In this document: piece by piece, positions 2,329 to 63,985 of the stretch
Layout: the number at the start of each line of letters is the position of its first letter
How positions within the stretch are numbered: position 1 is the first letter of the stretch
Origin: Candidatus Parcubacteria bacterium
Lineage (GTDB): Bacteria > Patescibacteriota > Patescibacteriia > Patescibacteriales > UBA12075
Length of the DNA stretch: 64,000 nt
Direction of reading: 5' to 3'
Assembly (NCBI GenBank): GCA_963814275.1
Contig: CAWFCE010000001.1
Location: forward strand, 131,307-195,306
Notes under the pieces: generated by a model
Seen by the model: only the letters and a program-made list of their open reading frames with translations
Database searches by the model: none
What the model was told of the DNA's origin: nothing
Position numbers and translations under genes: made by a program

Positions 2329-2330
2329 GA

Positions 2331-2431
2331 TTCCACTTGGCTTTACCTGCCTGCCGGCAGGCAGGGCCGAAGGTTCGCCAGGCTTCCACTTGGCTTCAGC
2401 CGAAGGTTCGCCAGGCTTTAGCCTGGTACAT
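2331..2431 (+). repeat. Family-2 palindromic repeat cluster, left-end (LE) type
   Basis: ttccacttggcttta, the 20-bp perfect palindrome cctgcctgccggcaggcagg (2346-2365), gccgaaggttcgccaggc units, and terminal hairpin ccaggc-ttta-gcctgg (2411-2426). Confidence 0.9.
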
Positions 2432-2463
2432 AACAAAGCGCAACAAAATTAAAATCGCAAAAA

Positions 2464-3057
2464 ATGCCCCATTACGCCCATTTGAAAAACGGCCCCGCAT
2501 ATTGGCCCGATGACGCCATTTATTTTCTGACCGACTCAACATTCATGCATTTCCCGTATTTTGATTCGCCCGAACAAAAGCAGATCGTTTTAAACCAGAT
2601 CAAAAAGATAAATAAATTATTAAGTATCCCTTTTTCCGCATTTAGTATTTCGAAAAATCATTATCATTTAAAATTTTATTTGGACAAGGGAGTTAAGCTC
2701 AATAAAGTAAAACAATATTTGCGAGGTGGAATTTCTTATGAATACAATAAAAGATTCGAAAAACCCTACCGGGAAATGTGGCAAACCCTGAAAACAGTAA
2801 TTGTCACGTCAGAAAGCATGGATTGGAAAGTGGCCGGATATATAATCGGTAATTTGATAAAACATCGGGAAGTCAGCACCTTTAACGACTTGATGGAAAA
2901 TGAGTATTCAAGTTTTTGGTATATGGCCGGTAAATACGGTTATGAGGAAATGGTAAGCTTGGTCAGGGAGATAATCGAAATAGATGAAAGCAGGGAAGGT
3001 GAGGTGGATTTACAGAAATTGAGCGGTTTAAATGTAAAGAAGTTTGTGAATAGATAG
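2464..3057 (+). CDS. Divergent RAYT-like / IS200-type HUH (Y1) transposase-family protein, copy 1
   Basis: Motifs occur in RAYT order: AIYFLT strand, HUH-like NHYHLKF, MWQ (RAYT has WQxRF), YIIGNLIKH (RAYT has YIxxNPVKH, the catalytic Tyr region) and EYSSF. The gene is bracketed by inverted repeat clusters. Confidence 0.6.
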   Translation: MPHYAHLKNGPAYWPDDAIYFLTDSTFMHFPYFDSPEQKQIVLNQIKKINKLLSIPFSAFSISKNHYHLKFYLDKGVKLNKVKQYLRGGISYEYNKRFEKPYREMWQTLKTVIVTSESMDWKVAGYIIGNLIKHREVSTFNDLMENEYSSFWYMAGKYGYEEMVSLVREIIEIDESREGEVDLQKLSGLNVKKFVNR

Positions 3058-3082
3058 TTATTTTTTGGGTGAATTTTACGGT

Positions 3083-3163
3083 GTATGAGGCTAAAGCCTC
3101 AACGACCTTCGGCCCTGCCTGCCGGCAGGCAGGTAAAGCCAAGTGGAAGCCTCAACGACCTTT
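3083..3163 (-). repeat. Family-2 palindromic repeat cluster, right-end (RE) type (inverted relative to LE)
   Basis: Hairpin tgaggc-taaa-gcctca (3086-3101), then accttcggc, palindrome 3114-3133, then taaagccaagtggaagcctcaacgaccttt. This is the reverse complement of the LE modules. Confidence 0.9.
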
Positions 3164-3213
3164 GACTAATGCGGAACGGAAGATATCCGATAATAACCTT
3201 TTGACTTTATCAC

Positions 3214-4811: not shown

Positions 4812-4830
4812 TAAATAATAAATGCATCCT

Positions 4831-4987
4831 CCACTTGGCTTTAGCGTTCGTCCGGGCTTACGCCAAAGACCGAAGGTTCGCCAGGCTTCCACTTGGCTTT
4901 ACCTGCCTGCCGGCAGGCAGGGCCGAAGGTTCGCCAGGCTTCCACTTGGCTTCAGCCGAAGGTTCGCCAGGCTTTAGCCTGGTACAT
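4831..4987 (+). repeat. Family-2 repeat cluster, extended LE type (copy-1/copy-2 junction)
   Basis: Three ccacttggctt units, palindrome 4902-4921, terminal hairpin ccaggctttagcctgg. The last 101 nt equal 2331-2431. Confidence 0.9.
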
Positions 4988-5019
4988 AATAAAGCGCAAC
5001 AAAATTAAAATCTCAAAAA

Positions 5020-5613
5020 ATGCCCCATTACGCCCCTTTGAAAAACAGCCCCACATATTGGCCCGATGACGCCATCTATTTTCTGACCGACTCAACATTC
5101 ATGCATTTCCCGTATTTTGATTCGTCCGAGCAAAAGCAAATCGTTTTAAACCAGATCAAAAAGATAAATAAATTATTGAGTATCCCTTTTTCCGCATATA
5201 GTATTTCGAAAAATCATTATCATTTAAAATTTTATTTGGATAAGGGAGTTAAGCTCAATAAAGTAAAACAATATTTGCGGGGTGGAATTTCTTATGAATA
5301 CAATAAAAGATTCGAAAAACCCTACCGGGAAATGTGGCAAACCCTGAAAACAGTAATTGTCACGTCAGAAAGCATGGATTGGAAAGTGGCCGGATATATA
5401 ATCGGTAATTTGATAAAACATCGGGAAGTCAGCACCTTTAACGACTTGATGGAAAATGAGTATTCAAGTTTTTGGTATATGGCCGGTAAATACGGTTATG
5501 AGGAAATGGTAAGCTTGGTCAGGGAGATAATCGAAATAGATGAAAGCAGGGAAGGTGAGGTGGATTTACAGAAATTGAGCGGTTTAAATGTAAAGAAGTT
5601 TGTGAATAGATAG
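5020..5613 (+). CDS. Divergent RAYT-like HUH protein, copy 2
   Basis: 197 aa. It differs from copy 1 at five residues (H6P, G10S, A12T, P35S, F59Y) plus several synonymous changes, all in the 5' third. Confidence 0.6.
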   Translation: MPHYAPLKNSPTYWPDDAIYFLTDSTFMHFPYFDSSEQKQIVLNQIKKINKLLSIPFSAYSISKNHYHLKFYLDKGVKLNKVKQYLRGGISYEYNKRFEKPYREMWQTLKTVIVTSESMDWKVAGYIIGNLIKHREVSTFNDLMENEYSSFWYMAGKYGYEEMVSLVREIIEIDESREGEVDLQKLSGLNVKKFVNR

Positions 5614-5638
5614 TTAATTTTTGGGTAAATTTTACGGT

Positions 5639-5719
5639 GTATGAGGCTAAAGCCTCAACGACCTTCGGCCCTGCCTGCCGGCAGGCAGGTAAAGCCAAGT
5701 GGAAGCCTCAACGACCTTT
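5639..5719 (-). repeat. Family-2 repeat cluster, RE type (copy 2)
   Basis: Same sequence as 3083-3163, shifted by 2,556 nt. Palindrome at 5670-5689. Confidence 0.9.
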
Positions 5720-5769
5720 GGCTAATGCGGAACGGAAGATATCCGATAATAACCTTTTGACTTTATCAC

Positions 5770-6567: not shown

Positions 6568-7367
6568 CATTCGCGCGGAAGATCATCGCGGTTAGCCGCA
6601 ACGAATGGCTGAAAGCTTTTTTTTACCGGGTAAGTATCTTGTCCTTTCGCCTCGGGGAATTCGTGCAAGTGGCTTTCAATGTAATAATATGGACGGCCAT
6701 CTTCCGCTCCGCGGCCGAAGTGGGCGGTTATGATTATCCGCAAATGATGACCTATATCGTGGTCGGTTATTTGTTTGCCCTTTTGAGCGACAACTATGTC
6801 TATGAAGCCAATATATCACGCTTGATCCACGATGGGCGCCTTTCCAATATCATGGTAAAACCGATATCATTTCTCGGCTATATCGTGTCCGCCGCCCTGG
6901 GCCGGGTGAGCGTAACGATCTTTTCCTCGTCCTTTATGCTGCTGCCGATCATAATATTTTGGAACCGGCTGTTGCCGCCCAGCGGTTTCTTGCCCGTCTT
7001 GATCATTCTGGCCATTTTGATCATCAGTTATTTTGTCAAACTCTTCCTGTCGATCCTGATCGGCATGATCGCGTTCTGGTTCATCCAGGTTTCCGGCTTC
7101 CAGTCGTCTTTCCGGCAACTGGAAAAAATGCTTTCCGGCTCTTATTTCCCGATCAACATCCTGCCGTTAATTTACGTTAAGATCAGCCTGTTTTTCCCCT
7201 TTGCCTATACGTTTTTCGTGCCAATGCAGATCTATCTGGGCAAAATGAGTATTGGGGAGGGTTTTGTGAGTATCGGTGTAATATCCGCCTGGCTTCTTGC
7301 GCTTTATGGTATAATTAAATTGGTTTATAAAATGGGTTTAAAGAAATACGAAAGCGTCGGTATTTGA
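6525..7367 (+). CDS. ABC-2 family transporter permease (pair 2, subunit B, copy 2)
   Basis: 280 aa. It differs from copy 1 only near the C-terminus (KMSIGEGFVSIGV versus KMGILEGFISIGV). Confidence 0.75.
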   Translation: MENRPQEIRKRRYLTFARKIIAVSRNEWLKAFFYRVSILSFRLGEFVQVAFNVIIWTAIFRSAAEVGGYDYPQMMTYIVVGYLFALLSDNYVYEANISRLIHDGRLSNIMVKPISFLGYIVSAALGRVSVTIFSSSFMLLPIIIFWNRLLPPSGFLPVLIILAILIISYFVKLFLSILIGMIAFWFIQVSGFQSSFRQLEKMLSGSYFPINILPLIYVKISLFFPFAYTFFVPMQIYLGKMSIGEGFVSIGVISAWLLALYGIIKLVYKMGLKKYESVGI

Positions 7368-7386
7368 TAAATAATAAATGCATCCT

Positions 7387-7539
7387 CCACTTGGCTTTAG
7401 CGTTCGTCCGGGCTTACGCCAAAGACCGAAGGTTCGCCAGGCTTCCACTTGGCTTTACCTGCCCGCCGGCAGGCAGGTAAAGCCAAGTGGAAGCCTCAAC
7501 GACCTTCGGCCCTGCCTGCCGGCAGGCAGGTAAAGCCAA
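7387..7539. repeat. Family-2 repeat cluster: LE joined directly to RE with no gene between them (empty element)
   Basis: 7443-7492 is a near-perfect 50-bp palindrome (ttccacttggctttacctgcccgcc|ggcaggcaggtaaagccaagtggaa). An RE module with a second palindrome follows (7511-7530). Confidence 0.9.
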
Positions 7540-9815: not shown

Positions 9816-9848
9816 AAAACACCTTTCCTCCAAGAGGTGTTTTTATTT
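9816..9848 (+). terminator. Rho-independent terminator candidate after prfB
   Basis: aaaacacct (9816-9824) pairs with aggtgtttt (9835-9843) and runs into a T-run. It abuts the RAYT start codon. Confidence 0.55.
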
Positions 9849-10517
9849 ATGGAAATTCATGAACTAAAACATAAACGTAAATCATACAGAATGCGGGATT
9901 ACGATTATAGTTCGCCTGGTTATTATTTTGTAACAATTTGCGTCAAGAACAAAACTTGCTGTTTGGGAAAAATCGTCGCGGGAGAAGATCGGTTTATTAC
10001 CGGCGAAATCAAGTTGTCGGAATTAGGCCGAATCGTAAATGATGTTTGGCTGTCTATTCCGGAACATCATAAAGTTGTTGAATTGGCCGAGTTTGTAATT
10101 ATGCCGAATCATATCCACGGGATAATTGGCATTAATGATATGGATTTCCGTAGGGGCATTGCGCGCAATACCCCAGAACGTGGCGATCCGCAAGCACTTT
10201 GCGCCAACCACCGCCGGGGCGTAGCACGCTACGCCCCTACGAATATGGATAAACGATGTTTTATTAAACAACCATCCGGATCCTTATCAACGATAATCGG
10301 TTCATTTAAATCTGAGGAATCAAGACGAATTCATGTGCTTCCAAAATGGAAAAATTTTAGCTGGCAGAGAAATTATTATGAACATATAATCGATAGTGAA
10401 AAATCATTGGAGTACATTCGATATTATATCGAAAATAATCCGATCAAGTGGTATGAAGATATCAATAATCCTAAAAATCGATTTACCGAATATCAGATAA
10501 AATATTATTACAAATAA
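9849..10517 (+). CDS. REP-associated tyrosine transposase (RAYT, IS200-like HUH/Y1 family)
   Basis: YYFVTICV strand, HUH motif MPNHIHGII, SWQRNYYEHII, and catalytic-Tyr region YIENNPIKW. The ORF track starts at GTG 9837, but ATG 9849 is better placed behind aagagg. It contains an in-frame 93-nt REP doublet. Confidence 0.85.
   Translation: MEIHELKHKRKSYRMRDYDYSSPGYYFVTICVKNKTCCLGKIVAGEDRFITGEIKLSELGRIVNDVWLSIPEHHKVVELAEFVIMPNHIHGIIGINDMDFRRGIARNTPERGDPQALCANHRRGVARYAPTNMDKRCFIKQPSGSLSTIIGSFKSEESRRIHVLPKWKNFSWQRNYYEHIIDSEKSLEYIRYYIENNPIKWYEDINNPKNRFTEYQIKYYYK
10149..10241 (+). repeat. Family-1 REP doublet (REPIN-like), copy inside the RAYT coding sequence
   Basis: GTAG plus hairpin ggggcattgcgcgcaatacccc at the left and ggggcgtagcacgctacgcccc plus CTAC at the right. 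It is 93 nt (31 codons) and matches 10534-10626 at 92 of 93 positions. Confidence 0.95.
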
Positions 10518-10533
10518 TTATTCCCCAGGTAAT

Positions 10534-10626
10534 CGTAGGGGCATTGCGCGCAATGCCCCAGAACGTGGCGATCCGCAAGCACTTTGCGCCAACCACCGCC
10601 GGGGCGTAGCACGCTACGCCCCTACA
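10534..10626 (+). repeat. Family-1 REP doublet (REPIN-like), copy 17 nt downstream of the RAYT stop
   Basis: cgtaggggcattgcgcgcaatgcccca...ggggcgtagcacgctacgcccctaca. Two GC-rich hairpins sit in inverted orientation, each headed by GTAG. Confidence 0.95.
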
Positions 10627-10639
10627 CCGTTATAATATT

Positions 10640-25283: not shown

Positions 25284-25889
25284 ATGGTTTACTATATTGC
25301 CGGAGGGATTATAATCGTTGTCGCCGGATATTTTTTTACCAGATTCGTATTTGATGTCCTGTTGCGCGGTTTCGCTCCGATCCTGCCTTCCCGGCCCTGG
25401 GTGGTCGAGCAGATCATGCGCGAGTTGTCGATAGAAAAACCCAAACCGGTTTTTCTGGCATTGAGTACCGGCCGTTCCGGCTTTTTCCATGCCCTGGAAA
25501 AAGAATTCCCCGATGCCGCCATGGTCGGCATCGAGCCCAGCCTGTTTCCTTATATCGTCGCCAGGATCCAGGCCATGGTGCGATATACGCGGATCAAGAT
25601 CATCCGCCAGCCGGTCCACCGGGTGAATGTCCGCCAGGCGGATTTTATTTATTGCCATCTTTATCCCGATTCAATGCACGGGCTGGGGAAGAAGTTGAAA
25701 TTTGAATGCCGTCCGAATACTATCATTTTGAGCGCCGGCTTCAATATCGCTGACTTAGAGATCAAAAAGACCATCCCCCTGGAGGATAGGCGCGGTAAAT
25801 TAGATTGGTTGAGCAAGAACCAAAAATTATTTCAATCGAAGAAGAAAAAGTATAAGAAGGAAAATAAAGCGTTTATTTATGTAATATGA
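25284..25889 (+). CDS. Membrane-anchored methyltransferase-like protein (degenerate SAM motif), Lys-rich tail
   Basis: N-terminal TM segment. The layout resembles a class I MTase core (VFLALSTGRSGFF ... VGIEPS ... ADFIYCH), but motif I is atypical. Confidence 0.4.
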   Translation: MVYYIAGGIIIVVAGYFFTRFVFDVLLRGFAPILPSRPWVVEQIMRELSIEKPKPVFLALSTGRSGFFHALEKEFPDAAMVGIEPSLFPYIVARIQAMVRYTRIKIIRQPVHRVNVRQADFIYCHLYPDSMHGLGKKLKFECRPNTIILSAGFNIADLEIKKTIPLEDRRGKLDWLSKNQKLFQSKKKKYKKENKAFIYVI

Positions 25890-25946: not shown

Positions 25947-26027
25947 CTTTACCGCCGATTATTCGCCGATTATTACGCTGATCTTACCTGCCTACCGGCA
26001 GGCAGGCGCGGATAATTCGCTATCGAT
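25947..26027 (-). repeat. Family-2b palindromic element
   Basis: The reverse complement reads atcgat..ccgcgcctgcctgccggtaggcaggt..atcagcg..cggcggtaaag, matching 59750-59823. Palindrome at 25987-26006. Confidence 0.85.
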
Positions 26028-26140: not shown

Positions 26141-26419
26141 TTGCCTATGAGTACAAAAAAACATTTTAGCGATGAGGAGGCGAAAGCGATCGGCGAACAA
26201 CTGGGAATCAATTGGGATAAGTTCGCTGTCGAACAATTCCGCCGCGGCATGGACGTTGAGCTTGAGCATGGCGTGGTTGATCCGCACACCAACGTCTCCA
26301 ATGACGATCCGCTGACCACAGGCAAAATCGCCCTGGCCCACCTGAACGAGTTTCCCGATTACTATGACCGTTTGGATAAAATGGAGAATGAAGCGGAAGC
26401 CTACTGGGAAGGCAAATAG
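26141..26419 (+). CDS. Small conserved hypothetical protein (ELEHG / HLxExPDYY motifs)
   Basis: 92-aa ORF followed by a terminator. The motif pair GMDVELEHG and AHLNEFPDYYDRL recalls a small DUF family. Confidence 0.6.
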   Translation: MPMSTKKHFSDEEAKAIGEQLGINWDKFAVEQFRRGMDVELEHGVVDPHTNVSNDDPLTTGKIALAHLNEFPDYYDRLDKMENEAEAYWEGK

Positions 26420-32542: not shown

Positions 32543-32604
32543 GCTAAAATATTTGCCCCGAATTAGGATTCGACAAATTTGCGATAATTTTTAAGGATAT
32601 ATAT

Positions 32605-32770
32605 CTGCCATCCTGGAGGCCGCAGGCCGATAGGACCCCGTGCCATATAGCACCGTTCAAGAATTACCGCGGATTAATTAAACGCGCCACCCTGCAATAT
32701 CCCGGGCAATACAACGCCCGTCGCACGCGCGTCGGGGTCCTATCGTCCCTCCGGGACTCCAGGAAGCCAG
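32605..32770 (+). mobile_element. Family-3 TIR-bounded non-coding element (MITE/REPIN-like), copy A
   Basis: The 5' end ccatcctggaggccgcaggccgataggaccccg faces the 3' end cggggtcctatcgtccctccgggactccaggaag. The first ~85 nt match the reverse complement of 36290-36381. Confidence 0.6.
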
Positions 32771-32968: not shown

Positions 32969-34636
32969 ATGAGCAGGAAAACTTTATATATAATTATCGG
33001 TTTGGTAATTGTTGCATTTGGGGCGCTTTGGTGGCGCTACGCCGGCGGAAATGTTTTTGCGGTCAATACGGTGATGAGCAAAGATTATACCATTGCCACC
33101 GGCGATAAAGCGACGATTAAGGACGGAGCAGTCTTGACTATCCAGGGGGATCTGTCGGTAAATGGCGAAATCAATTGCCAAAACGGGCCGATCCGCCTCG
33201 TGGTAAACGGCAATGTCCGGATAAACGGAAAAATGGACTGCGACCGGGGAAATTTGCTGGCAGACGGCGACATTGGAGCCGGGATCGTGATAGTCGCCCG
33301 GGGCGGGCTGACTCTGGCGCCGGAAGCGTTACTGGAAACCAACGGCCATGTCATCATCGTCGATCAATACGAGAATATACCGCAAAGCCGGACGGAAATA
33401 GATGAATTATACGATTCTGTCGCACGGGACAGGGGTAACGGCAACCGGGTCGGGCCTTTTGTCCCGGCCGAATCGGAAGGATTGCCGCAAATCGGCCTTT
33501 TGGATAAGCCGGCTGAATACGGAATTGAGACGGCACCAGCTACCCGTTATTTTTCATTTGGTATACCGGCCGCGCTGGCTGCCGGCGGCCCGATCAATTT
33601 AGGCGGCCGTATGGTTATCGATACCCCGCCAGCCGGAATCAAGCCCTTGGTCGTGCTGCAGGCGCTCAATGTTCCCTCTATCGGTTTGTCCCAGTTCGAA
33701 CTCGTCGGGCCGGATAGCCGTGACGGCAAAGACGATATCGGCGAAAATTGCCGGGCGACAGGGGCTGACGGTCAGGACAGCCTGCGCCTGCTGGTGGAGG
33801 CGCCGATCGTGATCATTAACGGTTTCGACCTTAGTCTGGGCCAAGCCGGCAACGGCGGCAAAGCGGAGACAAAAAAGGATTGCCCGGACGCAATCGCCCG
33901 CGGCGGTACGGGCGGACAGAGCGGCAATTTCAAGATCGTCGGCGGCAAAACCCTGGATATCAGCGGCGGTTTTCTGATCGATCCGGGCCAGGCCGGCAAC
34001 GGCGGCGAAGCGCTTGCTTATGGCAAAGACGGCGATATGGGGGAGGCGGGGGGAAACGCGATCGCAATCGGCGGCGAAACGGAAAATAACCGTAAAGCCG
34101 TGCGGCTGGTCGGCTCGGTCGGCGGGATCGATAATTTGGCGATCGGCAGCATGTCCGGCGGCAGCGGCGGCGATGCCCGGGCCGAAGGCGGCAGCGGCGG
34201 CAGCGGCGAAGCTTGCCGAAGGGGCGGCAACGGCGGCGATGCCCGGGCCGAAGGCGGCAGCGGCGGATCAGCCTGGATATACCTGAGGGGCGGAGGGATA
34301 TCGCGGACCGAAGATGCCAGGGATACCGGCGGCAGCGGCGGATCGGTAAGCGCGAACGGCGGCAGCGGCGGTGACGGCGGCGCTTGCGATGGGGTAAGTC
34401 CCGGCGGTAACGGCAGAAATGGCGGCGCAAGCGAGGTCGTACCCGGTTTGGCCGGATTGGGACAGTATCAAAGCGGCAATGGCGGAGCGGTTACCGGCAA
34501 TGCCGGCGGAGACGGCGGAGACGGCGGCAATGGTTGTCCGCCAGGGCAGGGCGGGACTGCCGGCCAAGGAGATCCGGCCGGCAAGGATGGACTTCCCGGA
34601 AACGATATCTGCCAGGAGGCCGAACCCGCGGAATAA
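32969..34636 (+). CDS. Membrane-anchored Gly-rich repeat protein (beta-helix-like N-terminal half, GGxGG-rich C-terminal half)
   Basis: 555 aa with N-terminal TM segment. Repeated GGDARAEGGSGGSG blocks are encoded by direct DNA repeats about 66 nt apart (around 34165 and 34231). Confidence 0.7.
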   Translation: MSRKTLYIIIGLVIVAFGALWWRYAGGNVFAVNTVMSKDYTIATGDKATIKDGAVLTIQGDLSVNGEINCQNGPIRLVVNGNVRINGKMDCDRGNLLADGDIGAGIVIVARGGLTLAPEALLETNGHVIIVDQYENIPQSRTEIDELYDSVARDRGNGNRVGPFVPAESEGLPQIGLLDKPAEYGIETAPATRYFSFGIPAALAAGGPINLGGRMVIDTPPAGIKPLVVLQALNVPSIGLSQFELVGPDSRDGKDDIGENCRATGADGQDSLRLLVEAPIVIINGFDLSLGQAGNGGKAETKKDCPDAIARGGTGGQSGNFKIVGGKTLDISGGFLIDPGQAGNGGEALAYGKDGDMGEAGGNAIAIGGETENNRKAVRLVGSVGGIDNLAIGSMSGGSGGDARAEGGSGGSGEACRRGGNGGDARAEGGSGGSAWIYLRGGGISRTEDARDTGGSGGSVSANGGSGGDGGACDGVSPGGNGRNGGASEVVPGLAGLGQYQSGNGGAVTGNAGGDGGDGGNGCPPGQGGTAGQGDPAGKDGLPGNDICQEAEPAE

Positions 34637-36229: not shown

Positions 36230-36381
36230 CTGTCATCCTGGAGCCCCCGCAGGGGCGCGTACGGCCAAACCGCGGTTACCCGCGAATATCATTTTGTGGC
36301 GCGTTAAATTAATCGGTGGTAATTATTGAACGGTGCAAAGTGGCACGGGGTCCTTTCGGCCTGCGGCCTCCAGGATGACAG
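36230..36381 (-). mobile_element. Family-3 TIR-bounded non-coding element, copy B (inverted relative to copy A)
   Basis: Perfect 14-bp terminal inverted repeat ctgtcatcctggag / ctccaggatgacag, extending imperfectly to about 24 bp. It lies between the sigma gene and the downstream membrane-protein gene. Confidence 0.7.
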
Positions 36382-36474
36382 AAATGTATTGGCAGTAAAT
36401 TTGCTAGCTTTAATGATTACTATATTTATTAAGTTACCTTTTCAATCATTGTCCGTTATATAAGGCAGAACCAT

Positions 36475-38203: not shown

Positions 38204-38293
38204 CGTTGGGGCATTGCGCGCAATACCCCAACCGTGGCGGCGCCATCGGGCCGCATCAACCACGGCCGGGGCGTAGCACGCTACACCACTACG
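38204..38293 (+). repeat. Family-1 REP doublet, diverged copy
   Basis: cgttggggcattgcgcgcaataccccaa ... ggggcgtagcacgctacaccactacg. Both terminal hairpins are recognisable. The head is GTTG instead of GTAG, and the central ~35 nt is replaced. Confidence 0.85.
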
Positions 38294-38378
38294 ACATTAG
38301 GCTCAATAATTTTGAAAAATTTACTGATTATATAGATAATGATTTTTATAATCAGTCAAAATATGTTATAATATAATC

Positions 38379-53066: not shown

Positions 53067-53406
53067 ATTCGTAAAGACAACGACTTAGGCTGAATTACGA
53101 TTGTGTATTTAATTAATGCGTAAAATTACTGTAGGGAAATTAGAAATTGGAAATTAGGCTTTTACCGATAATTGAATTTCCAATTTCCAGTTTCAAATCT
53201 CCGAAAGTGCCAGCATGAATATGGCCGAAAAGATGATTAGTTGCCGATAAACCATATAATAAGCAAAAAATTTTAAATATAAAATAAAATTCATAATTAA
53301 TTAATTTGCATACGGCTGGTTTCCCGGCTAACCGGGAAAAAAACTCCGTCTATATCAATTAAAGCGATTTTAAGCTTATTAGGCGGGGGCCGTAACCAGA
53401 CGAAAC

Positions 53407-55302: not shown

Positions 55303-55501
55303 CCCATTATCAATTAGCAGCCGCTATAATATTTTTCCGGCAACTCTGTAATTGGCCAGGCCAATATGCATTTAAGAAAGTACCGGAAGATGAATGGCGA
55401 GCGACAGGAAATAATCACAACAAAATAATCGCCAAAATTTAAATTCGCGTACTGGCTGGTTTTTGTTGTAACCGGCTTTTTGTTTTTCGGGAGGATTAGC
55501 C

Positions 55502-55569
55502 GCAAATCTGCAAATCAAAATACGAATTCCCGAATATCGTAATTCGTATGAAAACTTGTAGATTTGCGT
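55502..55569 (+). promoter_or_regulatory. Nested leader hairpin upstream of rplC
   Basis: Outer stem cgcaaatctgcaa (55502-55514) pairs with ttgtagatttgcg (55557-55569): 12 Watson-Crick pairs plus 1 G-U that is valid only on the + strand. Inner stem atacgaatt (55521-55529) pairs with aattcgtat (55542-55550). Confidence 0.45.
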
Positions 55570-57683: not shown

Positions 57684-57787
57684 TTCTTCCACTCGGCTTC
57701 ACCTGCCTGCCGGCAGGCAGGGCCGAAGGTCCGTCAGGCTTCCACTTGGCTTCAGCCGAAGGTCCGCCAGGCTTTAGCCTGGTACAT
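57684..57787 (+). repeat. Family-2 repeat cluster, LE type, solo copy in the rplW-rplB spacer
   Basis: ttccactcggcttcacctgcctgccggcaggcagggccgaaggtccgtcaggcttccacttggcttcagccgaaggtccgccaggctttagcctggtacat. It closely resembles 2331-2431, differing at a handful of positions. Confidence 0.9.
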
Positions 57788-57866
57788 GTTGAAAACCCCC
57801 CGATTAAAGCCAAGAAGAAAGCACATGTGATGAATTGAATTAAAAATAGAAGAAATAATATATAAT

Positions 57867-58709
57867 ATGGGAGTGAAACAAGTAAAACCGAATACTGCCG
57901 CTTTAAGACAAGCTACGTTTGACGATTTTTCCGATATTACCAAAAGCAGCCCGGAGAAACGGCTGACTATCGCGAAAAAGCGTATCAGCGGGCGCAACGC
58001 GCAAGGCAAGATAACCGTCAGGCATCGCGGCGGCGGAGAGAAGCGCCGTATCCGTTTGGTCGATTTCAAGCGCGACAAATACGATATTCCCGCAGTGGTC
58101 GTTTCGATCGAATATGACCCGAACCGGGGAGCGCGTGTTGCTTTGTTGAATTACAAGGATGGTGAAAAGCGTTATATCATTGCACCGGTCGGTTTGGCTG
58201 TAAAGGATAGCGTGCTTAGCTCCAGGAAAAAAATCGATATCAAGCAGGGCAATACCATGCCGATTAAATACATACCGGCGGGAGTTGCCGTTTATAATGT
58301 CGAGATCGAACAGGGCCGCGGCGGCAGGGTCGCGCGCGGAGCCGGTAATGCCGTATATGTAATGGGCGTGGAAGGGAAAATGGCCCAGGTCAAAATGCCG
58401 TCAGGCGAGATCCGGCTGATCAAGAAAGAATGCCTGTGTACCGTCGGCCAGGTAAGCAACCCCGACAAAAGGCATATCACGCTGGGTAGCGCCGGACGGA
58501 TGCGCCATCTTGGTTTCCGCCCGACCGTACGCGGCACCGCTATGAATCCGATCGACCATCCGCATGGCGGCGGTGAAGGCAAACAATCGATCGGTATGAA
58601 ACATCCCAAAACACCTTGGGGCAAACCGGCGCTGGGAGTAAAAACCAGAAAGCTCAAAAAATCCAGCAACCGCCTGATCATTAAGCGGCGCGGCCGCAAA
58701 CGCCGGTAA
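57867..58709 (+). CDS. rplB: 50S ribosomal protein L2
   Basis: GRNAQGKITVRHRGGG, ALLNYKDGEKRYIIAP, and PTVRGTAMNPIDHPHGGGEG. Confidence 0.97.
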   Translation: MGVKQVKPNTAALRQATFDDFSDITKSSPEKRLTIAKKRISGRNAQGKITVRHRGGGEKRRIRLVDFKRDKYDIPAVVVSIEYDPNRGARVALLNYKDGEKRYIIAPVGLAVKDSVLSSRKKIDIKQGNTMPIKYIPAGVAVYNVEIEQGRGGRVARGAGNAVYVMGVEGKMAQVKMPSGEIRLIKKECLCTVGQVSNPDKRHITLGSAGRMRHLGFRPTVRGTAMNPIDHPHGGGEGKQSIGMKHPKTPWGKPALGVKTRKLKKSSNRLIIKRRGRKRR

Positions 58710-58779
58710 AGCCAATAATTTAAAATAACCATTTTAGAAAAGCGAAAACATCGATAACACTAATAAGTATTTAAATAAT

Positions 58780-59067
58780 ATGTCGAGAAGTCTTAAAAAA
58801 GGACCTTACGTAAACGAACGTCTGATCAAGAAGATAAAAGACCTGAAACCGGGTGATAAACGGGTGATAAATACCTGGGACCGTTCCTGCTCCATCACCC
58901 CTGAGATGGTTGGTTTTACTATCGGCGTCCATAACGGCAGAAAGCATTTACCCGTATATGTAGTGGAAAATATGGTCGGCCATAAGCTGGGCGAGTTTTC
59001 TCCTACCCGCAAATTCTTAGGCCACGGGGGCAAGATGGCCAAAGACCAGGCGAAATCAAGCAGCTAG
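58780..59067 (+). CDS. rpsS: 30S ribosomal protein S19
   Basis: [11 protein letters not shown]..., [25 protein letters not shown], and [11 protein letters not shown]. Confidence 0.97.
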
Positions 59068-59130
59068 TGAAGGATGCGCCAGGTGTGGCCAAGCCATAAT
59101 AATAGATCATAGATTTTAATATCGAGTACT

Positions 59131-59715
59131 ATGGAAGTAAAAGCCAATATAAAACATATCAGGATGTCGCCGCGAAAAGTTCGGTCGGTAGTGAACGTTA
59201 TCCGTGGGATGAAAACCGGGGAAGCGCTCGATCAGCTGAATTTTATCAATAAGCTGGCGGCTAAACCGATCATCAAGCTGATCAGCTCGGCGCAGGCAAA
59301 CGCGGAACATAATTTTGAATTGAAAAAGGATAATTTGTATATTAAGGAAATAACCGTTAACGAAGGGCCAACCCTGAAGCGCTGGCAGCCGCGCGCCCGC
59401 GGCCGGGCGACTCCGATCAGGAAACGGACCAGCCATATCGATCTGGTATTGGGTGAATTGGTCGAAAGCGGCAAGACCGGCCCCAAGAAACAGGCAGTGG
59501 CGGCGCCGGTCAAGCTGGATGAGCGGCCGAAGGAGGCGGAAGGGGTGAAAATCGCCGATAAGAAAGACAAAGAGAAAAGCGAAGCAGAAACAAGTGCCGA
59601 AAAAGGCAAAAAAATAGCCGATCCCAGAATGGAAGGACGCGGCCAGCATACGAAGATCGAAGGCAAAGGCCAAAAAGGCTTTATGGGCAAGATGTTCCGC
59701 CGCAAAAGCGGCTAA
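59131..59715 (+). CDS. rplV: 50S ribosomal protein L22 (with ~80-aa Lys/Glu-rich C-terminal extension)
   Basis: Core: RMSPRKVRSVVNVIRG...ANAEHN...VNEGPTLKRWQPRARGRATPIRKRTSHI. The extension runs from about nt 59467. Confidence 0.95.
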   Translation: MEVKANIKHIRMSPRKVRSVVNVIRGMKTGEALDQLNFINKLAAKPIIKLISSAQANAEHNFELKKDNLYIKEITVNEGPTLKRWQPRARGRATPIRKRTSHIDLVLGELVESGKTGPKKQAVAAPVKLDERPKEAEGVKIADKKDKEKSEAETSAEKGKKIADPRMEGRGQHTKIEGKGQKGFMGKMFRRKSG

Positions 59716-59749
59716 TCGATTTTTGCGGATTACCGGTTTTTATACATAA

Positions 59750-59823
59750 ATCGATTATCAGCGTTAAATCCGCGCCTGCCTGCCGGTAGGCAGGTGGCAA
59801 TAGGCGTAAAATCAGCGGTAAAG
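59750..59823 (+). repeat. Family-2b palindromic element in the rplV-rpsC spacer
   Basis: atcgattatcagcgttaaatccgcg, then cctgcctgccggtaggcagg (59775-59794), then tggcaataggcgtaaaatcagcggtaaag. Confidence 0.85.
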
Positions 59824-59894
59824 ACATTCTTAAGAGAACCAATATTTATTACGAAATAACGTATTACAAGACTAAGCGATAAATATTCAGATAT

Positions 59895-60587
59895 ATGGGA
59901 AAGAAAATAAATCCAAAAATATTCCGTATCAGCGTGACCAAACAATGGCCTTCGAAATGGTTCGATGAAGGCCAGGATTATGCGCGAAAAGTTGAACAGG
60001 ATGTCAGCACCCGGCGTTTTATCTTGCGTGAATTGCGCGAGGCCGGAGTCGATCGGGTGGAAATCGAGCGCAGCGCCAATAAGATCAGCGTCGGCGTTTA
60101 TACCGCCAAACCCGGACTGATCATCGGCCGGGGCGGAACCGGTGTCGATGAGCTGAAAAAGAAGATCCATGATAAATTCCTCAAGAATTACAAACCAGGC
60201 GACATAAATATAAATATTTACGAGGTAGACCGCCCGAATCTTAGCGCCCAGATAATCACCCAGTCGATGATATTGGATATTGAGAAAAGAATGCCTTTTC
60301 GCAGAGTAATGAAGCAGGCATTGTCCCGGATCGAAAGAGCAGGGGCCCTGGGAGCCAAAATCGTAGTCAGCGGACGCCTGAACGGGGCGGAAATCGCCCG
60401 CACCGAAATGCTGTCCAGCGGTAAGGTACCGCTTCACACCCTGCGCGCGGATATCGATTATGCCCGCGGCGCGGCGCGCACCACTTACGGGGCGATCGGT
60501 TTAAAAGCCTGGATATACAAGGGCGATAAATTCGTCAAGGAAACGGAACAGAAGGGGGAGGTAGTAGGTAAAAAACCGCGAAGATAA
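59895..60587 (+). CDS. rpsC: 30S ribosomal protein S3
   Basis: MGKKINPKIFR..., the KH domain IIGRGG, and GRLNGAEIARTE. Confidence 0.97.
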   Translation: MGKKINPKIFRISVTKQWPSKWFDEGQDYARKVEQDVSTRRFILRELREAGVDRVEIERSANKISVGVYTAKPGLIIGRGGTGVDELKKKIHDKFLKNYKPGDININIYEVDRPNLSAQIITQSMILDIEKRMPFRRVMKQALSRIERAGALGAKIVVSGRLNGAEIARTEMLSSGKVPLHTLRADIDYARGAARTTYGAIGLKAWIYKGDKFVKETEQKGEVVGKKPRR

Positions 60588-60612
60588 TTATCATTAGACA
60601 AACAGTTCACAT

Positions 60613-61017
60613 ATGTTAATGCCAAAGAAAACTAAATATCGCAAGTCCCACAAGGGTAACCGCGGCGGAAAGGCAACCCGCCGGATTGCCGTGAGCTACG
60701 GCAGTTATGGCCTCAAAACCATGGAACCCCATTGGGTGACTTCCCGCCAGATCGAGGCCGCCCGCCGGGTAATGACCCGCTACACCAAGCGCGGCGGAAA
60801 AGTCTGGATCAGGATTTTCCCGGATAAGCCGGTAACGAAGAAGGGCGGAGAAATCCCGATGGGCAAAGGCAAGGGCGCGGTCGATCATTATGTCGCGGTG
60901 GTAAAGCCGGGGATGGTAATGTTCGAAATGGACGGCATTACCGTGGAGATGGCCAAGAAGGCAATGGAATCGGCTGCCCAGAAGCTCCCGGTCAAATGCA
61001 AATTTGTCGTAAGATAA
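60613..61017 (+). CDS. rplP: 50S ribosomal protein L16
   Basis: [29 protein letters not shown], and [15 protein letters not shown]. The start is ATG 60613 or 60619. Confidence 0.97.
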
Positions 61018-61038
61018 TATTATTTTATAATCATATAT

Positions 61039-61302
61039 ATGGAGTTAAAGGAATTAAAAAAGAAGAATAAGGGTGAGTTGCATAAGATCCTGTCGGAAAC
61101 ACGGGAGAAGCTGCGCGACCTGCGGTTCAAAGACGCGAATAAGCAGCTTAAAGATATTCGCCAGATTCGCGGCGTGCGGAGAACTATCGCCCAGGTTTTG
61201 ACTTTGCTCAATACCGGAGACTCCAAGGAAGCGGACAAGACGGCAGGAGGCGCCCAGGCAGAGGTTAATTCCGAAACTGCGGGAGATGCCGCTAAATCAT
61301 AA
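61039..61302 (+). CDS. rpmC: 50S ribosomal protein L29 (with ~25-30-aa C-terminal extension)
   Basis: ELKELKKKNKGELHKILSETREKLRDLRFK...IRGVRRTIAQVLT, then an acidic/Ala-rich tail. Confidence 0.9.
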   Translation: MELKELKKKNKGELHKILSETREKLRDLRFKDANKQLKDIRQIRGVRRTIAQVLTLLNTGDSKEADKTAGGAQAEVNSETAGDAAKS

Positions 61303-61321
61303 TTTTAGCATTTAAATACAT

Positions 61322-61603
61322 ATGGCTGAAAAAACAATAGTACAAGAAAAATCATCGCCCGAACCCCAAACCATTATCAAGAAAAAGTTCAAAGGAGTGG
61401 TCGTAGGCGATAAGATGGACAAAACGATCGTAGTCCGCATTGACCGGGTGAAGCGACATCCCAAGTATAATAAGCGCTATACGGTCAGCCGGAACTATAA
61501 GGTCCATGACGAAAAGAACCAATTCCACGAAGGCGACCAGGTTCAGTTCATCGAATGCCGGCCGTTGTCCAAGGACAAGCGCTGGCGGGTGATTTACAGC
61601 TAA
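61322..61603 (+). CDS. rpsQ: 30S ribosomal protein S17
   Basis: KKKFKGVVVGDKMDKTIVVRIDRVKRHPKYNKRY...YKVHDEKNQFHEGDQVQFIECRPLSKDKRW. Confidence 0.96.
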   Translation: MAEKTIVQEKSSPEPQTIIKKKFKGVVVGDKMDKTIVVRIDRVKRHPKYNKRYTVSRNYKVHDEKNQFHEGDQVQFIECRPLSKDKRWRVIYS

Positions 61604-61703
61604 AAGTTTATAAAATTCATAAAGTAAAAAGTTTCTAAAGCAGTAAGCAGCGGTGTAGCAGGCGACTTTATAAACTTTCAACTTTATAAACTTATTACTT
61701 AAT

Positions 61704-62075
61704 ATGATACAGGTACAGACAAAATTGAAAGTCGCGGATAATTCCGGCGCGCGCATCGTAATGTGCATTAAAGTGCTGGGCGGTTACAAAAAGCGCTATT
61801 GCCGCATTGGCGAAGTATTTACCGCCGCGGTCAAAGACGCGACCCCGCATACGGCGATCAAAAAAGGCGATGTGGTGCATTGCGTCCTGGTCCGGACGAA
61901 AAAAGAGATCAGACGGGACGATGGGACCTATCTTCGCTTTGACGAAAACGCCTGCGTGGTCCTGGATAAGGAAAAAAAGGAGCCCCGCGGCACCCGCATC
62001 TTCGGACCGATCGCCCGCGAAGTACGCCGCCAGGGATATTTCAAGATCGCATCGCTCGCCCCGGAGGTCCTGTAA
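61704..62075 (+). CDS. rplN: 50S ribosomal protein L14
   Basis: [26 protein letters not shown]...RFDENACVV...[13 protein letters not shown]...IASLAPEVL. Confidence 0.98.
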
Positions 62076-62111
62076 ATTTCAAATTATATCGTTATATAAA
62101 TTCGTAATCAT

Positions 62112-62438
62112 ATGAATATAAAAAAGGGAGACAAAGTAAAGATATTGGCCGGCAAGGATAACGGCAAAACGGGCAAAGTGCTGCAGGTTTTTTCGACGCG
62201 CCGCAAGGCGAGCATCGAAGGCTTGAACCTGCTGATCAAGCATATGCGACCGCGCCGGCAAGGGGAAAAAGGGCAACGGATAGAATTTCCCGCGCCGATG
62301 GATGTCTCCAATATGATCCTGGTTTGCCCCAAATGCGGGAAACCGTCGCGGACCAGGCACAAAACCGTAAAGTCGGAGAAGACCGGTAAGCAGAAAAAAT
62401 ACCGGGTGTGCGTCAAATGTAAACAAACGATTGATTAG
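62112..62438 (+). CDS. rplX: 50S ribosomal protein L24 (C-terminal CxxC...CxxC variant)
   Basis: KOW motif IKKGDKVKILAGKDNGKTGKV. The C-terminus contains CPKCG and CVKC. Confidence 0.93.
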   Translation: MNIKKGDKVKILAGKDNGKTGKVLQVFSTRRKASIEGLNLLIKHMRPRRQGEKGQRIEFPAPMDVSNMILVCPKCGKPSRTRHKTVKSEKTGKQKKYRVCVKCKQTID

Positions 62439-62540
62439 GCAATAGGCATTTAGGCAATAGGCAGTAGGCTGTAGGGCAAAGACATTGCTTTCCGCCTACC
62501 AACCTACCCGCCTACCAACCTACCCGCCTACCAACCTAGT
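62436..62540 (+). repeat. Spacer repeat: taggc-rich arm (62436-62478) facing three tandem 16-bp units cgcctaccaacctacc (62493-62539)
   Basis: Units at 62493-62508, 62509-62524 and 62525-62539. The left arm is an imperfect complement (gtagg/cctac pairings). Confidence 0.85.
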
Positions 62541-62542
62541 AT

Positions 62543-63088
62543 ATGAGACTACAAGAACAATACAAAAAGAAGATAATGCCGGAACTGAGGAAGCAGTTCG
62601 GCTTCAAGAACGATTTCGAGGTGCCGATACTCAAGAAAGCGGTGGTTAATGTCGGATTCGGACGGCACTATAAGGAAAAACAATATATCGATTCCGTTGT
62701 TTTGGGATTGACCCGCATAACCGGACAAAAGCCGATCCTGACCAAGGCGAAAAAGGCCATATCGGCGTTTAAGATCAGGGAAGGGATGATAATCGGCGCG
62801 ACGGTTACGCTGCGCGGGAAACGGATGTATGATTTTATCGAAAAGTTGATAAATATAACCTTCCCCCGGGTGCGCGATTTCCGCGGCATTAGCGATAAGG
62901 GTATCGACCGGAATGGCAACATCACCATTGGTTTTCACGAGTATTTGCCGTTCCCGGAGATCAAGGCGGACGAAGTGGAGAATGTATTCGGCCTGGAGAT
63001 CTGCCTGCACACATCCGCCCGGAACAGGGAAGAGGGATTGGCAATGCTGACTTTGCTGGGTTTACCATTTAAAAAAGATAACAAATAG
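62543..63088 (+). CDS. rplE: 50S ribosomal protein L5
   Basis: RLQEQYKKKIMPELRKQFGFKN..., ITGQKP, FKIREGM.IGATVTLRG..MY.F..KL, and PRVRDFRG. Confidence 0.97.
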   Translation: MRLQEQYKKKIMPELRKQFGFKNDFEVPILKKAVVNVGFGRHYKEKQYIDSVVLGLTRITGQKPILTKAKKAISAFKIREGMIIGATVTLRGKRMYDFIEKLINITFPRVRDFRGISDKGIDRNGNITIGFHEYLPFPEIKADEVENVFGLEICLHTSARNREEGLAMLTLLGLPFKKDNK

Positions 63089-63097
63089 CATAAAAAC

Positions 63098-63283
63098 ATG
63101 GCTAGAAAAGCAATGATCGCGAAAGCGAAAAGAACACCGAAGTTTTCCACGCGGAAGATCCGCCGTTGTTGGCGCTGCGGCCGTATTCACGGCTATATGC
63201 GCGACTTCGATCTGTGCCGGATTTGCTTTCGGGAATTGGCGGAAAATGGCGATTTACCGGGGGTAACACGATCATCCTGGTAG
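63098..63283 (+). CDS. rpsN: 30S ribosomal protein S14, short zinc-binding (type Z) form
   Basis: 61 aa with [23 protein letters not shown] (CxxC...CxxC) and a C-terminal W. Confidence 0.95.
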
Positions 63284-63384
63284 ATCAGTATAATTTTACG
63301 TATAAATCGTTAATAATTTCAGTTCATAAACCGCTGTTAATAATAATTCAATAATTTTATTGACACATAATTTATTTGACACGT

Positions 63385-63798
63385 ATGACAGATCCAATTG
63401 CTGACATGCTAACAAGAATACGCAACGCCTCCCTGGTGAAGAAACATGAGGTGCTTTTGCCGATGAGTAAAGTGAAATACGAAATTGCCAAATTAATGAA
63501 GCAAGAGGGGCTGATCCTGGACGTCGAAGTACTCAAAAATCCCGGCAAAAAGAACAATAGCTCCGTTTTTGACGAACTGAAGCTGGTTTTAAAGTATAAA
63601 AAAAGCGGCCGCTCTTATATTAATAATCTGAAGCGCATCAGCAAGCCCGGCTTGCGGGTTTATGCGAAGAGCGACAAATTGCCGCGGGTATTGAATAATC
63701 TGGGGATTGCCATAATTTCCACCCCGGAAGGGCTGATGACGAATAAAATGGCCAGGAAAAAGGGCTTGGGCGGGGAAATCATCTGCGAAATATACTAG
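63385..63798 (+). CDS. rpsH: 30S ribosomal protein S8
   Basis: [15 protein letters not shown]..., [21 protein letters not shown], and [14 protein letters not shown] 63385 is preferred over the TTG at 63376. Confidence 0.97.
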
Positions 63799-63850
63799 TT
63801 TAAATTTATTTATAAGTAGAATATTTTCGTTCGACACGTATAATCACACA

Positions 63851-63914
63851 ATAATTATCCGCGTTGAATCCGCGCCTGCCGGCAGGCAGTAATCTGCGTT
63901 AAATCGGCGGTTAA
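63851..63914 (+). repeat. Family-2b palindromic element (short palindrome variant) in the rpsH-rplF spacer
   Basis: ataattatccgcgttgaatccgcg, then cctgccggcagg (63875-63886), then cagtaatctgcgttaaatcggcggttaag. Confidence 0.8.
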
Positions 63915-63985
63915 GCTGTGGTTAAATAAATAAACTTAAATAACGAAAGTAGCAGACAAGAGATTGTTCTCATGTCAGAATACAT

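Follow-up and report, generated by a model that had tools for sequence, protein, structure and literature searches.

We analyzed a window of 64,000 nucleotides (nt) from a Candidatus Parcubacteria bacterium, a part of the 457,738-bp contig CAWFCE010000001.1; all repeat counts below refer to this 64-kb window. The last 9 kb of its + strand carry the S10/spc ribosomal-protein operon in canonical order (rpsJ-rplC-rplD-rplW-rplB-rpsS-rplV-rpsC-rplP-rpmC-rpsQ-rplN-rplX-rplE-rpsN-rpsH-rplF), with the identities of S10, L23, L2, L22, S3, and S8 backed by Pfam. Three of its spacers carry repeats rich in guanine and cytosine (GC) around the core palindrome CCTGCC(TGCC)GGCAGG(CAGG). These repeats, together with a gene resembling those of the tyrosine transposases associated with repetitive extragenic palindromes (REPs), known as RAYTs, are the subject of our analysis. 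The original prediction, made from the letters of the sequence alone, gave spacer lengths of 412 nt for rpsJ-rplC, 193 nt for rplW-rplB, 179 nt for rplV-rpsC, and 187 nt for rpsH-rplF, all of which are exact; the remaining operon spacers measure 9 to 104 nt. It also placed repeats in the last three of these spacers, and they prove to be dispersed elements that form GC islands and whose modules also flank the RAYT-type gene.

The operon elements have a GC content of 0.52 to 0.64, against 0.27 to 0.28 in the surrounding spacers (0.53 against 0.28 for the element at 59750-59823). Subtracting them leaves spacers of 91, 105, and 123 nt. This residue, and the fact that the GC islands lie in AT-rich DNA, indicates that the spacers were already sizeable before the elements arrived. 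Insertion into the operon spacers thus holds up, but the repeats alone do not account for the length of the spacers. All three copies lie in the sense orientation and end 79, 71, and 71 nt before the next start codon (57788-57866, 59824-59894, and 63915-63985); no common motif is visible by eye in these segments, and with n = 3 the similar distance may be a coincidence. Folding relative to shuffled sequences is modest (z scores of -1.4 to -2.3). No T-run lies 3' of the hairpins in any of the three elements, and none of the elements is among the terminator-like sites. Only tRNA-Pro reaches the gathering threshold in an Rfam search of the window, and at E <= 1 the operon yields three sub-threshold chance matches, none of them to the elements. 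Lacking both a T-run and an RNA-family match, the elements are neither terminators nor known leaders. Internal terminators or promoters were rejected as candidates, as there are no terminator-like sites at the elements and the promoter-like matches are weak.

The cluster in the rplW-rplB spacer, originally described as a solo LE-type cluster, is borne out by its alignment to 2330-2431 and 4886-4987, the left flanks of both copies of the RAYT gene, with 95% identity over 102 nt. It consists of three tandem REP units (Table 1). The LE-type layout is TTCCAC-T(T/C)GGC-[TTYA + 20-nt palindrome]-GCCGA-AGGT for the first unit, TTCCAC-TTGGC-TTCA-GCCGA-AGGT for the second, and (GGTTCG)CC-AGGC-TTTA-GCCT-GGTACAT for the third. 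Neighboring units overlap, the foot of one running into the head of the next, and the arrangement places the palindrome within the first unit's loop. The layout agrees with the family consensus from the RAYT-homologue loci described below, and the window unit TTCCAC-TTGGC-TTCA-GCCGA-AGGTT is an ordinary family member with one G-T pair. The sequence TAAAGCCAAG, 18 nt past the cluster, was considered as a degenerate right-end module and rejected with a local alignment score of 11; shuffled controls average 8.8, and 3.6% of them reach 12.

The other two operon elements, like a copy between non-ribosomal genes, are of the type that had been called 2b. The three copies align with a mean column identity of 73%, which supports the layout proposed earlier, including the direct GCGTTAAATC-like motif on either side of the palindrome. 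Their common layout is GCG(N4)ATCCGCG - palindrome - GCG(N3)AATC(N)GCGGT(A/T)AAG, with one upstream and one or two downstream direct copies of GCG(N4)A(A/T)TC(N)GCG(G). An outer stem formed by pairing of the flanks across the palindrome was rejected, since the flanks are direct and not inverted. Because the GCGTTAAATC-like motif is the same at all three loci, it is part of 2b and not a duplicated target of the kind that marks miniature inverted-repeat transposable elements (MITEs). The palindrome itself is the nested 20-mer of the RAYT-flank REP, either with 1 mismatch or 4 nt shorter. In our reading, free-standing modules have combined in 2b into a mosaic similar to the bacterial interspersed mosaic elements (BIMEs). 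Within 59705-59765, the left edge of 2b (CATAAATCGATTATCAGCGTT) and the 3' end of rplV (AAAGCGGCTAATCGATTTTTG) show 81% complementarity, and the element could pair with the end of that gene, although the match is partly trivial because ATCGAT is itself palindromic. Elsewhere in the window, a 3.6-kb segment with the gene for a Gly-rich repetitive protein (32969-34636) lies between two inverted repeats of 94 nt, 32597-32690 and 36296-36389, which are 88% complementary; this third repeat family combines a CATCCTGGAGGCCGCAGGCC module with a 2b-flank-like GCGTTAAATTAATCGGTGGTAA module.

A search of the window for CCTGCCNNNNGGCAGG with at most 1 mismatch returned 19 overlapping matches at 10 loci, where 0.13 are expected and no shuffle reached 19. 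All 10 loci are extragenic although intergenic DNA makes up 19% of the window (P ~2e-6 for 8 independent loci all falling in intergenic DNA). The gene-less site at 7426-7539 is a REP doublet in which two inverted clusters make up the palindrome 7426-7509, with a predicted RNA fold of -81.6 kcal/mol (z = -11.1).

The RAYT gene is present twice in the window, both copies lying in one tandem duplication with a 2556-bp period. Arms of 59 nt at 2327-2385 and 3094-3152, 90% complementary, bracket the gene. The duplication, at 2324-7435, repeats a block of REP cluster, RAYT gene, inverted REP cluster, and two ABC-2 permease genes; it is bounded by REP clusters, its flanks are 96% identical, and the arrangement suggests REP-mediated unequal recombination rather than an assembly artifact. 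The encoded protein of 197 amino acids (aa) has an AlphaFold2 model with a mean predicted local distance difference test (pLDDT) score of 89.7. Its best Foldseek match in the PDB is 4er8_A, the E. coli RAYT with a REP hairpin (E = 1.9e-6; template-modeling [TM] scores of 0.60/0.70), and the two superpose with a root-mean-square deviation of 2.8 over 155 columns at 14% sequence identity. IS608 TnpA (E = 7.6e-4) and ISDra2 TnpA come next, and this fold class fills ranks 2 to 40, so the predicted fold is nearer to TnpA(REP) than to the TnpA proteins of the IS200/IS605 family.

Table 1. Repeats, RAYT-like genes, and hairpins in the window, with the rplC-upstream block of the relatives
Feature	Position	Strand	Remarks
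REP cluster, rplW-rplB spacer (earlier "solo LE-type")	57686..57787	+	GC 0.64, against 0.27 in the rest of the spacer
REP-a	57687-57731		TTCCAC-TCGGC...GCCGA-AGGTC; 20-nt palindrome 57702-57721 nested in loop
REP-b	57740-57764		TTCCAC-TTGGC-TTCA-GCCGA-AGGTC
REP-c	~57762-57787		CCAGGC-TTTA-GCCTGG-TACAT
2b element, rplV-rpsC spacer	59750..59823	+	GCGTTAAATCCGCG, then palindrome 59775-59794, then GCGTAAAATCAGCGGTAAAG
2b element, rpsH-rplF spacer	63851..63914	+	Shortened palindrome CCTGCCGGCAGGCAG, 63875-63889
2b copy, non-ribosomal	25947..26027	-	Between + strand genes 25284-25889 and DUF5661 gene 26147-26419
RAYT-like HUH/Y1 transposase gene, copy a	2464..3057	+	197 aa; ~50 kb upstream of operon repeats
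RAYT-like gene, copy b	5020..5613	+	Protein 97.5% identical to copy a; within tandem duplication
Left-flank REP cluster, copy a	2330..2431	+	Copy b counterpart 4886-4987
Right-flank REP cluster, copy a	3086..3166	-	Shorter, inverted relative to left flank; copy b counterpart 5642-5722
Palindrome loci	2346, 3114, 4902, 5670, 7458, 7511, 25987, 57702, 59775, 63875		CCTGCCNNNNGGCAGG search, at most 1 mismatch
Gene-less REP doublet	7426..7539	.	84-nt near-perfect palindrome 7426-7509, then second palindrome unit 7511-7539
Non-palindrome-type hairpin just upstream of rplC	55501..55568	+	7-8-nt arm units CGCAAAT/CTGCAAAT/TACGAAT
rpsQ-rplN spacer hairpin	61604..61703	+	AAAGTT / AACTTT units; z = -2.4
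rplX-rplE spacer hairpin	62439..62542	+	GTAGG / CCTACC-repeat arms; z = -3.0, no shuffle folded as well
rplC-upstream block, window	55345-55490
rplC-upstream block, L001	8030-8195
rplC-upstream block, L003	7950-8100
rplC-upstream block, L004	1625-1765
rplC-upstream block, L058	6080-6240
rplC-upstream block, L059	6270-6435
rplC-upstream block, L060	5150-5345

We found 89 homologues of the 197-aa protein, with 43 to 67% identity. Their named sources are Patescibacteria, Falkowbacteria, or Paceibacteria, and two more are labeled only "bacterium". Public annotations already call some of them transposases; many carry a precomputed PF01797 assignment, and one is labeled "REP element-mobilizing transposase RayT" (JGI). 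The subfamily is small, comprising 31 clusters at E <= 1e-30 among 1.84 billion representatives. In an alignment of 27 homologues (42 to 65% identity), the HUH motif N65-H66-Y-H68 and the tyrosine motif G125-Y126-I-I-G129-N130-L-x-K133-H134 are invariant or nearly so.

The association of repeat and enzyme extends across 53 metagenome loci that carry RAYT homologues, 39 of them with both flanks available. The best inverted match between the gene flanks is nearly always of one design, exemplified by TTCTACCCGGCTTTAGCCGAGGGTT, TTCCACCGCCCTTTAGGGCGGGTT, and TTCTACCCTGCCCATGGCAGGGGT: a tag TTC(T/C)AC, a covarying hairpin of 5 to 6 bp, and GGT. The rigid pattern TTCYAC-N16-GGT gave 3 matches only and was replaced by a search for the tag plus a hairpin, which found 121 units, compared with 22 in shuffled sequence. 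A unit lies within 250 nt of the gene in 32 of the 39 loci; a + unit lies upstream in 28, a - unit downstream in 23, and both are present in 19. Unit density is 4.1 per kb near the gene and 0.16 per kb further off, a 27-fold difference. Among 51 distinct units picked by tag and loop alone, 87.1% of the cells at the five stem positions are paired (55.5% in shuffles). The covariation score of 0.806, reached by none of 500 shuffles, compares with 0.208 for the shuffled units. Double changes occur in all five stem pairs, and slid controls are at most 45% paired. The nested palindrome also occurs beside the RAYT of locus L036 (44% identical), as cTTCCAC-CCCACT-tt-CCTGCCGGCAGGCAGG-AGTGGAGGGTT, so this variant is not peculiar to the genome studied here. 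CCTGCC/GGCAGG serves as the REP stem itself in L020, L024, L034, and L051.

We conclude that the operon elements are probably REP-type, BIME-like mosaic repeats of a divergent, native RAYT system that inserted into permissive spacers. The tie to the RAYT is drawn from the 95% identity to the RAYT flank, the inverted flank clusters, the HUH and Tyr motifs, the RAYT-like fold, and the family-wide tag and hairpin. The 197-aa HUH/Y1 protein would be the cognate enzyme, binding the folded REP hairpin on single-stranded DNA. A cut adjoining the hairpin through Tyr126, followed by rejoining of the strand elsewhere, would seed copies in extragenic DNA. Three such copies would have landed in AT-rich S10/spc spacers long enough for 64 to 102 extra bases, where they could persist, as they end 71 to 79 nt ahead of start codons, bring no terminator features, and interrupt no gene. 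Binding, cleavage, and strand transfer are proposed by analogy with E. coli TnpA(REP) and IS608 (PMC3479197, PMC8266576). The enzyme is presumably active. It would also be this enzyme, rather than recombination or gene conversion, that placed the operon copies. The 2b mosaics may likewise have been moved by the RAYT at 2464-3057, and the operon copies are presumably neutral or nearly so for operon expression.

To place the operon in context, we compared six distant S10/spc operons (L001, L003, L004, L058, L059, and L060). The full palindrome is absent from all six, with one chance half-palindrome inside rplB of L060. Their spacers measure 45 to 103 nt for rplW-rplB, 44 to 100 nt for rplV-rpsC, and 1 to 110 nt for rpsH-rplF. 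The shorter spacers of relatives that lack such a palindrome, together with the GC islands, make the operon copies insertion-like. The rpsJ-rplC spacer is long in all six relatives, 198 to 499 nt in five of them; in L059 the interval is split by a dtd gene. The original prediction had named equally long spacers without the repeats in related genomes as a finding that would refute it. In part this is what we see, as relatives without these repeats have spacers of up to 110 nt, but four of the six hold other hairpin repeats at many junctions. L001, L003, L058, and L060 each have their own long-hairpin families in many S10/spc spacers (z scores of -3 to -9), and these types are dispersed as families within each genome's ribosomal operon. 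A hairpin is present in the rplW-rplB spacer of six of the seven genomes, namely, as the REP cluster in the window and in five relatives. In L004 the operon is compact, its spacers adding up to 486 nt, and in L059 hairpins occur at few junctions only. A hairpin load is thus common in this clade's operon, varies by junction, and is dispensable, given the variable occupancy, the compact L004, and the few hairpins of L059. Of the alternatives named in the original prediction, permissive insertion is the better supported: the relatives lack these repeats, four of the six carry other hairpin families, and one is compact, and this variable load favors recurrent colonization. Indirect support for the RNA functions that it also named (processing, stability, dosage) is weak.

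The arms of the relatives' hairpins are made of tandem units of 7 to 8 nt, such as (ATAAAGTT)n/(AACTTTAT)n, yYAC[AG]AAT, and GAAGTAA/TTACTTC. Hairpins with periodic arms also occur in the window, at 53135-53202, 55501-55568, 61604-61703, and 62439-62542, all in the tuf/S10/spc region; none is found in the window's 46 kb of other genes, which carry terminators with a GC stem and a T-run. Hairpins analogous to the one at 55501-55568 lie upstream of rplC in L001, L003, L058, and L060. An exact 20-mer, ACTTTCAACTTTATAAACTT, is common to the window (61674-61693) and L060 (10611-10630), whose L23 proteins are 55% identical. The junctions differ, rpsQ-rplN here and rplV-rpsC in L060, and related copies lie at rplB-rpsS and rpsC-rplP of L060; the shared 20-mer suggests either that a recognition unit has been conserved or that the two genomes have a mobile hairpin family in common. 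We found no account of hairpin repeats, periodic-arm hairpins included, in the ribosomal operons of Patescibacteria or the candidate phyla radiation (CPR) in the literature searched.

REP or BIME sequences with a RAYT (TnpA(REP)), together termed REPtrons, are known from E. coli, Pseudomonas, Stenotrophomonas, and Marinomonas (PMC3479197, PMC8266576, PMC5581495, PMC3116915). The system described here shares with them a small enzyme of the HUH/Y1 type, with 4er8 as the nearest match to its predicted fold, a gene bracketed by inverted repeat copies, a conserved short tag directly 5' of a short hairpin, the stem of which covaries from lineage to lineage, copies that are all extragenic in the window and form BIME-like mosaics and clusters, and copies that can sit between the genes of one operon. 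It differs in its TTC(T/C)AC tag, in a protein with only 14% identity to 4er8 and with scores under the NF047646 and PF01797 cut-offs, in units that are mostly direct, tandem, and overlapping (the foot of one being the tag region of the next), in the perfect 20-nt palindrome nested in the loop of one unit, in a gene present twice in the window by tandem duplication, and in its setting, a Patescibacterium with a small genome and copies inside the S10/spc operon. The system is REPtron-like, yet it lacks the GTAG tag and falls below the curated hidden Markov model cut-offs, and it is therefore a variant rather than a plain member. Most likely, the repeats belong to a familiar class of small mobile DNA, here met in an unusual host and at an unusual site. 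REPINs, which are REP doublets forming hairpins in Pseudomonas fluorescens (PMC3116915, PMC3337134), resemble the palindrome at 7426-7509, where inverted REP clusters form one long hairpin near the RAYT. The three operon copies, in contrast, are not inverted doublets but direct tandem units or a single palindrome with direct flanks. The TnpA proteins of IS200/IS605 elements (IS608, ISDra2) share the fold class, HUH with a single Tyr, and, by analogy, the recognition of subterminal hairpins in single-stranded DNA. Those elements move themselves and have different hairpins at their left and right ends, whereas in the present case inverted copies of a dispersed repeat flank the gene, and gene-less copies occur elsewhere.

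Two further groups of elements are similar in part. Intercistronic REP hairpins in E. coli operons, e.g., in malE-malF, act as mRNA stabilizers or translation modulators. Like them, the operon copies are GC-rich sense hairpins between co-transcribed cistrons without terminator T-runs, but here the first stable stem begins at least 20 nt past the upstream stop codon. Correia elements of Neisseria and the Rickettsia palindromic elements are MITEs of the terminal-inverted-repeat type or in-frame insertions, with no linked HUH enzyme. By description, they too are short palindromic repeats that occur in compact genomes and are transcribed together with adjacent genes.

Several results weigh against a RAYT-borne origin. 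The 197-aa protein matches NF047646 (REP_Tyr_transpos, NCBIfam) with E = 1.5e-8 and 34.6 bits, compared with a cut-off of 80, and Pfam PF01797 (Y1_Tnp) with E = 1.3e-4 and 22.5 bits, compared with a cut-off of 23; a sequence-profile search of the PDB with this protein returned nothing relevant. In characterized REPs, a conserved tetranucleotide, GTAG, precedes the hairpin foot on its 5' side (PMC8266576, PMC3733652), while the conserved 5' tag here is TTC(T/C)AC, and GTAG occurs in these REPs only as the complement of the tag, 3' of the hairpin on the other strand. The comparison of operons is a distant one: the protein database holds no L23 homologue closer than 57 to 71% identity, and a contig scan with the L23 query yielded a single usable relative, at 53% identity. 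Of the four palindrome loci away from the RAYT genes, three sit in operon spacers, although these spacers account for 13.6% of the intergenic DNA that is comparable (post hoc binomial P = 0.009), an enrichment that purely neutral insertion does not predict. Finally, 2b shares the palindrome with the RAYT-flank clusters but neither their tag nor their foot, and its GCGTTAAATC-like flanks are absent from all 53 RAYT-homologue loci.

This last pair of observations leaves the RAYT at 2464-3057 as an uncertain mover of 2b and raises the possibility, which we hold tentatively and consider the less probable one, that 2b is a separate family that shares or has captured the palindrome and was spread by another enzyme or by recombination. 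Its flanks, GCGTTAAATCCGCG ... GCGTAAAATCAGCGGTAAAG, have no TTC(T/C)AC tag or GGT foot, and a module like GCGTTAAATTAATCGGTGGTAA recurs in the third repeat family (32597-32690 and 36296-36389), pointing to free-standing mosaic modules. The palindrome of 2b is nevertheless the RAYT-flank 20-mer, CCTGCC/GGCAGG is a recurrent REP stem in this RAYT subfamily, and no other candidate enzyme is visible in the window.

A second alternative concerns maintenance rather than origin: the elements may be exapted intercistronic RNA hairpins, kept because the transcript needs stable stem-loops between its cistrons. Possible roles are to block 3'-5' exonucleases, to offer sites for RNase III-type processing, or to insulate the next ribosome-binding region so that it stays unstructured, and the REP-derived hairpins here would fill the role of the other hairpin repeats in the relatives. 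This would be in keeping with the strong hairpins in many spacers of four relatives, the rplW-rplB hairpin of six genomes, the confinement of periodic-arm hairpins to the tuf/S10/spc region, the uniform sense orientation and similar start-codon distance of the three copies, and the nominal post hoc enrichment in operon spacers. Intercistronic REPs were also first described as operon regulators, according to a citation of Higgins et al. 1982 in PMC12306157. However, hairpin occupancy varies among the relatives, with L004 compact and L059 holding few hairpins, and the occupied junctions differ by genome except for rpsJ-rplC and rplW-rplB. The 2b copy at 25947-26027 is antisense and lies between non-ribosomal genes, the folding of the operon elements is modest, and differential dosage offers no obvious benefit for ribosomal proteins, which are needed in equal amounts. 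We therefore consider exaptation unlikely, and it is similarly doubtful that the tuf/S10/spc spacers of this clade are a preferred, possibly selected niche for hairpin repeats that are working parts of the mRNA. If they were, hairpins would replace tight translational coupling as elements of processing, stability, or insulation, and a transposase-linked repeat would have been recruited to that end.

The position of the elements upstream of ribosomal-protein genes and their stable hairpins might also suggest conserved cis-regulatory leaders, i.e., autogenous ribosomal-protein sites or attenuators, for rplB, rpsC, and rplF. The same sequences adjoin transposase, ABC-transporter, and DUF5661 genes, the corresponding junctions of the six relatives examined lack them, and the elements show no Rfam match even at E <= 1 and no terminator-like features. 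The multi-copy, non-ribosomal distribution effectively refutes this explanation, which we regard as highly improbable. Chance similarity or a repeat-caused assembly artifact can be dismissed almost entirely, for although the source is probably a metagenome-assembled contig in which repeats can cause misjoins, the 19 matches far exceed expectation, the copies differ by a few substitutions, and the operon genes follow the canonical order without interruption, each element being embedded in unique sequence on either side.

Insertion of RAYT-linked repeats into permissive spacers, the explanation we prefer, bears on a field that has studied the REP/RAYT system almost entirely in Proteobacteria, where RAYTs are seen as long-lived, vertically inherited host partners. 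The literature searched contained no paper linking RAYTs, REPINs, or REPs with Patescibacteria or the CPR. The present data describe a coherent RAYT subfamily in Patescibacteria with ultra-small genomes, with its own TTC(T/C)AC tag in place of GTAG, and provide natural hairpin covariation data useful for understanding how HUH enzymes read their substrates. They also indicate that REP-type elements can reside in the operon that, in a streamlined genome, is the most conserved and the most strongly expressed. Because several relatives have other hairpin repeats in the S10/spc operon, it becomes a testable question whether such repeats are tolerated passengers or functional parts of the mRNA. This lineage-wide hairpin load is the aspect most worth pursuing.

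Within 9837-10632, the window contains a second, different RAYT-like gene, which encodes 226 aa (NF047646, E = 1e-12) and has a classical GTAG-tagged REP doublet of its own, CGTAGGGGCATTGCGCGCAATGCCCC...GGGGCGTAGCACGCTACGCCCCTAC. One doublet copy of ~99 nt (10149-10247) lies in frame inside the 226-aa gene, between its HUH and Tyr motifs; another lies just downstream of the gene (10534-10632), and a third lies at 38257 (38257-38299). A 5'-GTAG is present in the repeats of this second family (10149-10240 and 10534-10625).

A block upstream of rplC is present in all seven genomes. It comprises two motifs, one resembling GAAAGTGCTTAAAT and one resembling GAGGTAA, as well as a terminator-like, T-run-bearing hairpin, which in the window lies at 55454-55477 (GGCTGGTTTTTGTTGTAACCGGCT then TTTTTGTTTTT). 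The block has no Rfam match, and the rpsJ-rplC spacers of the seven genomes align too poorly for RNAalifold beyond the terminator-like stem. It may serve the L3-L4 genes as an attenuator or leader of a kind not described so far. The neighboring intervals of two relatives hold additional genes: in L059 a gene for D-tyrosyl-tRNA deacylase separates rpsJ from rplC (5437-6463), and L060 has two duplicated small open reading frames (78 to 79 aa) with repeated upstream sequences between rplC and rplD (6335-7103).

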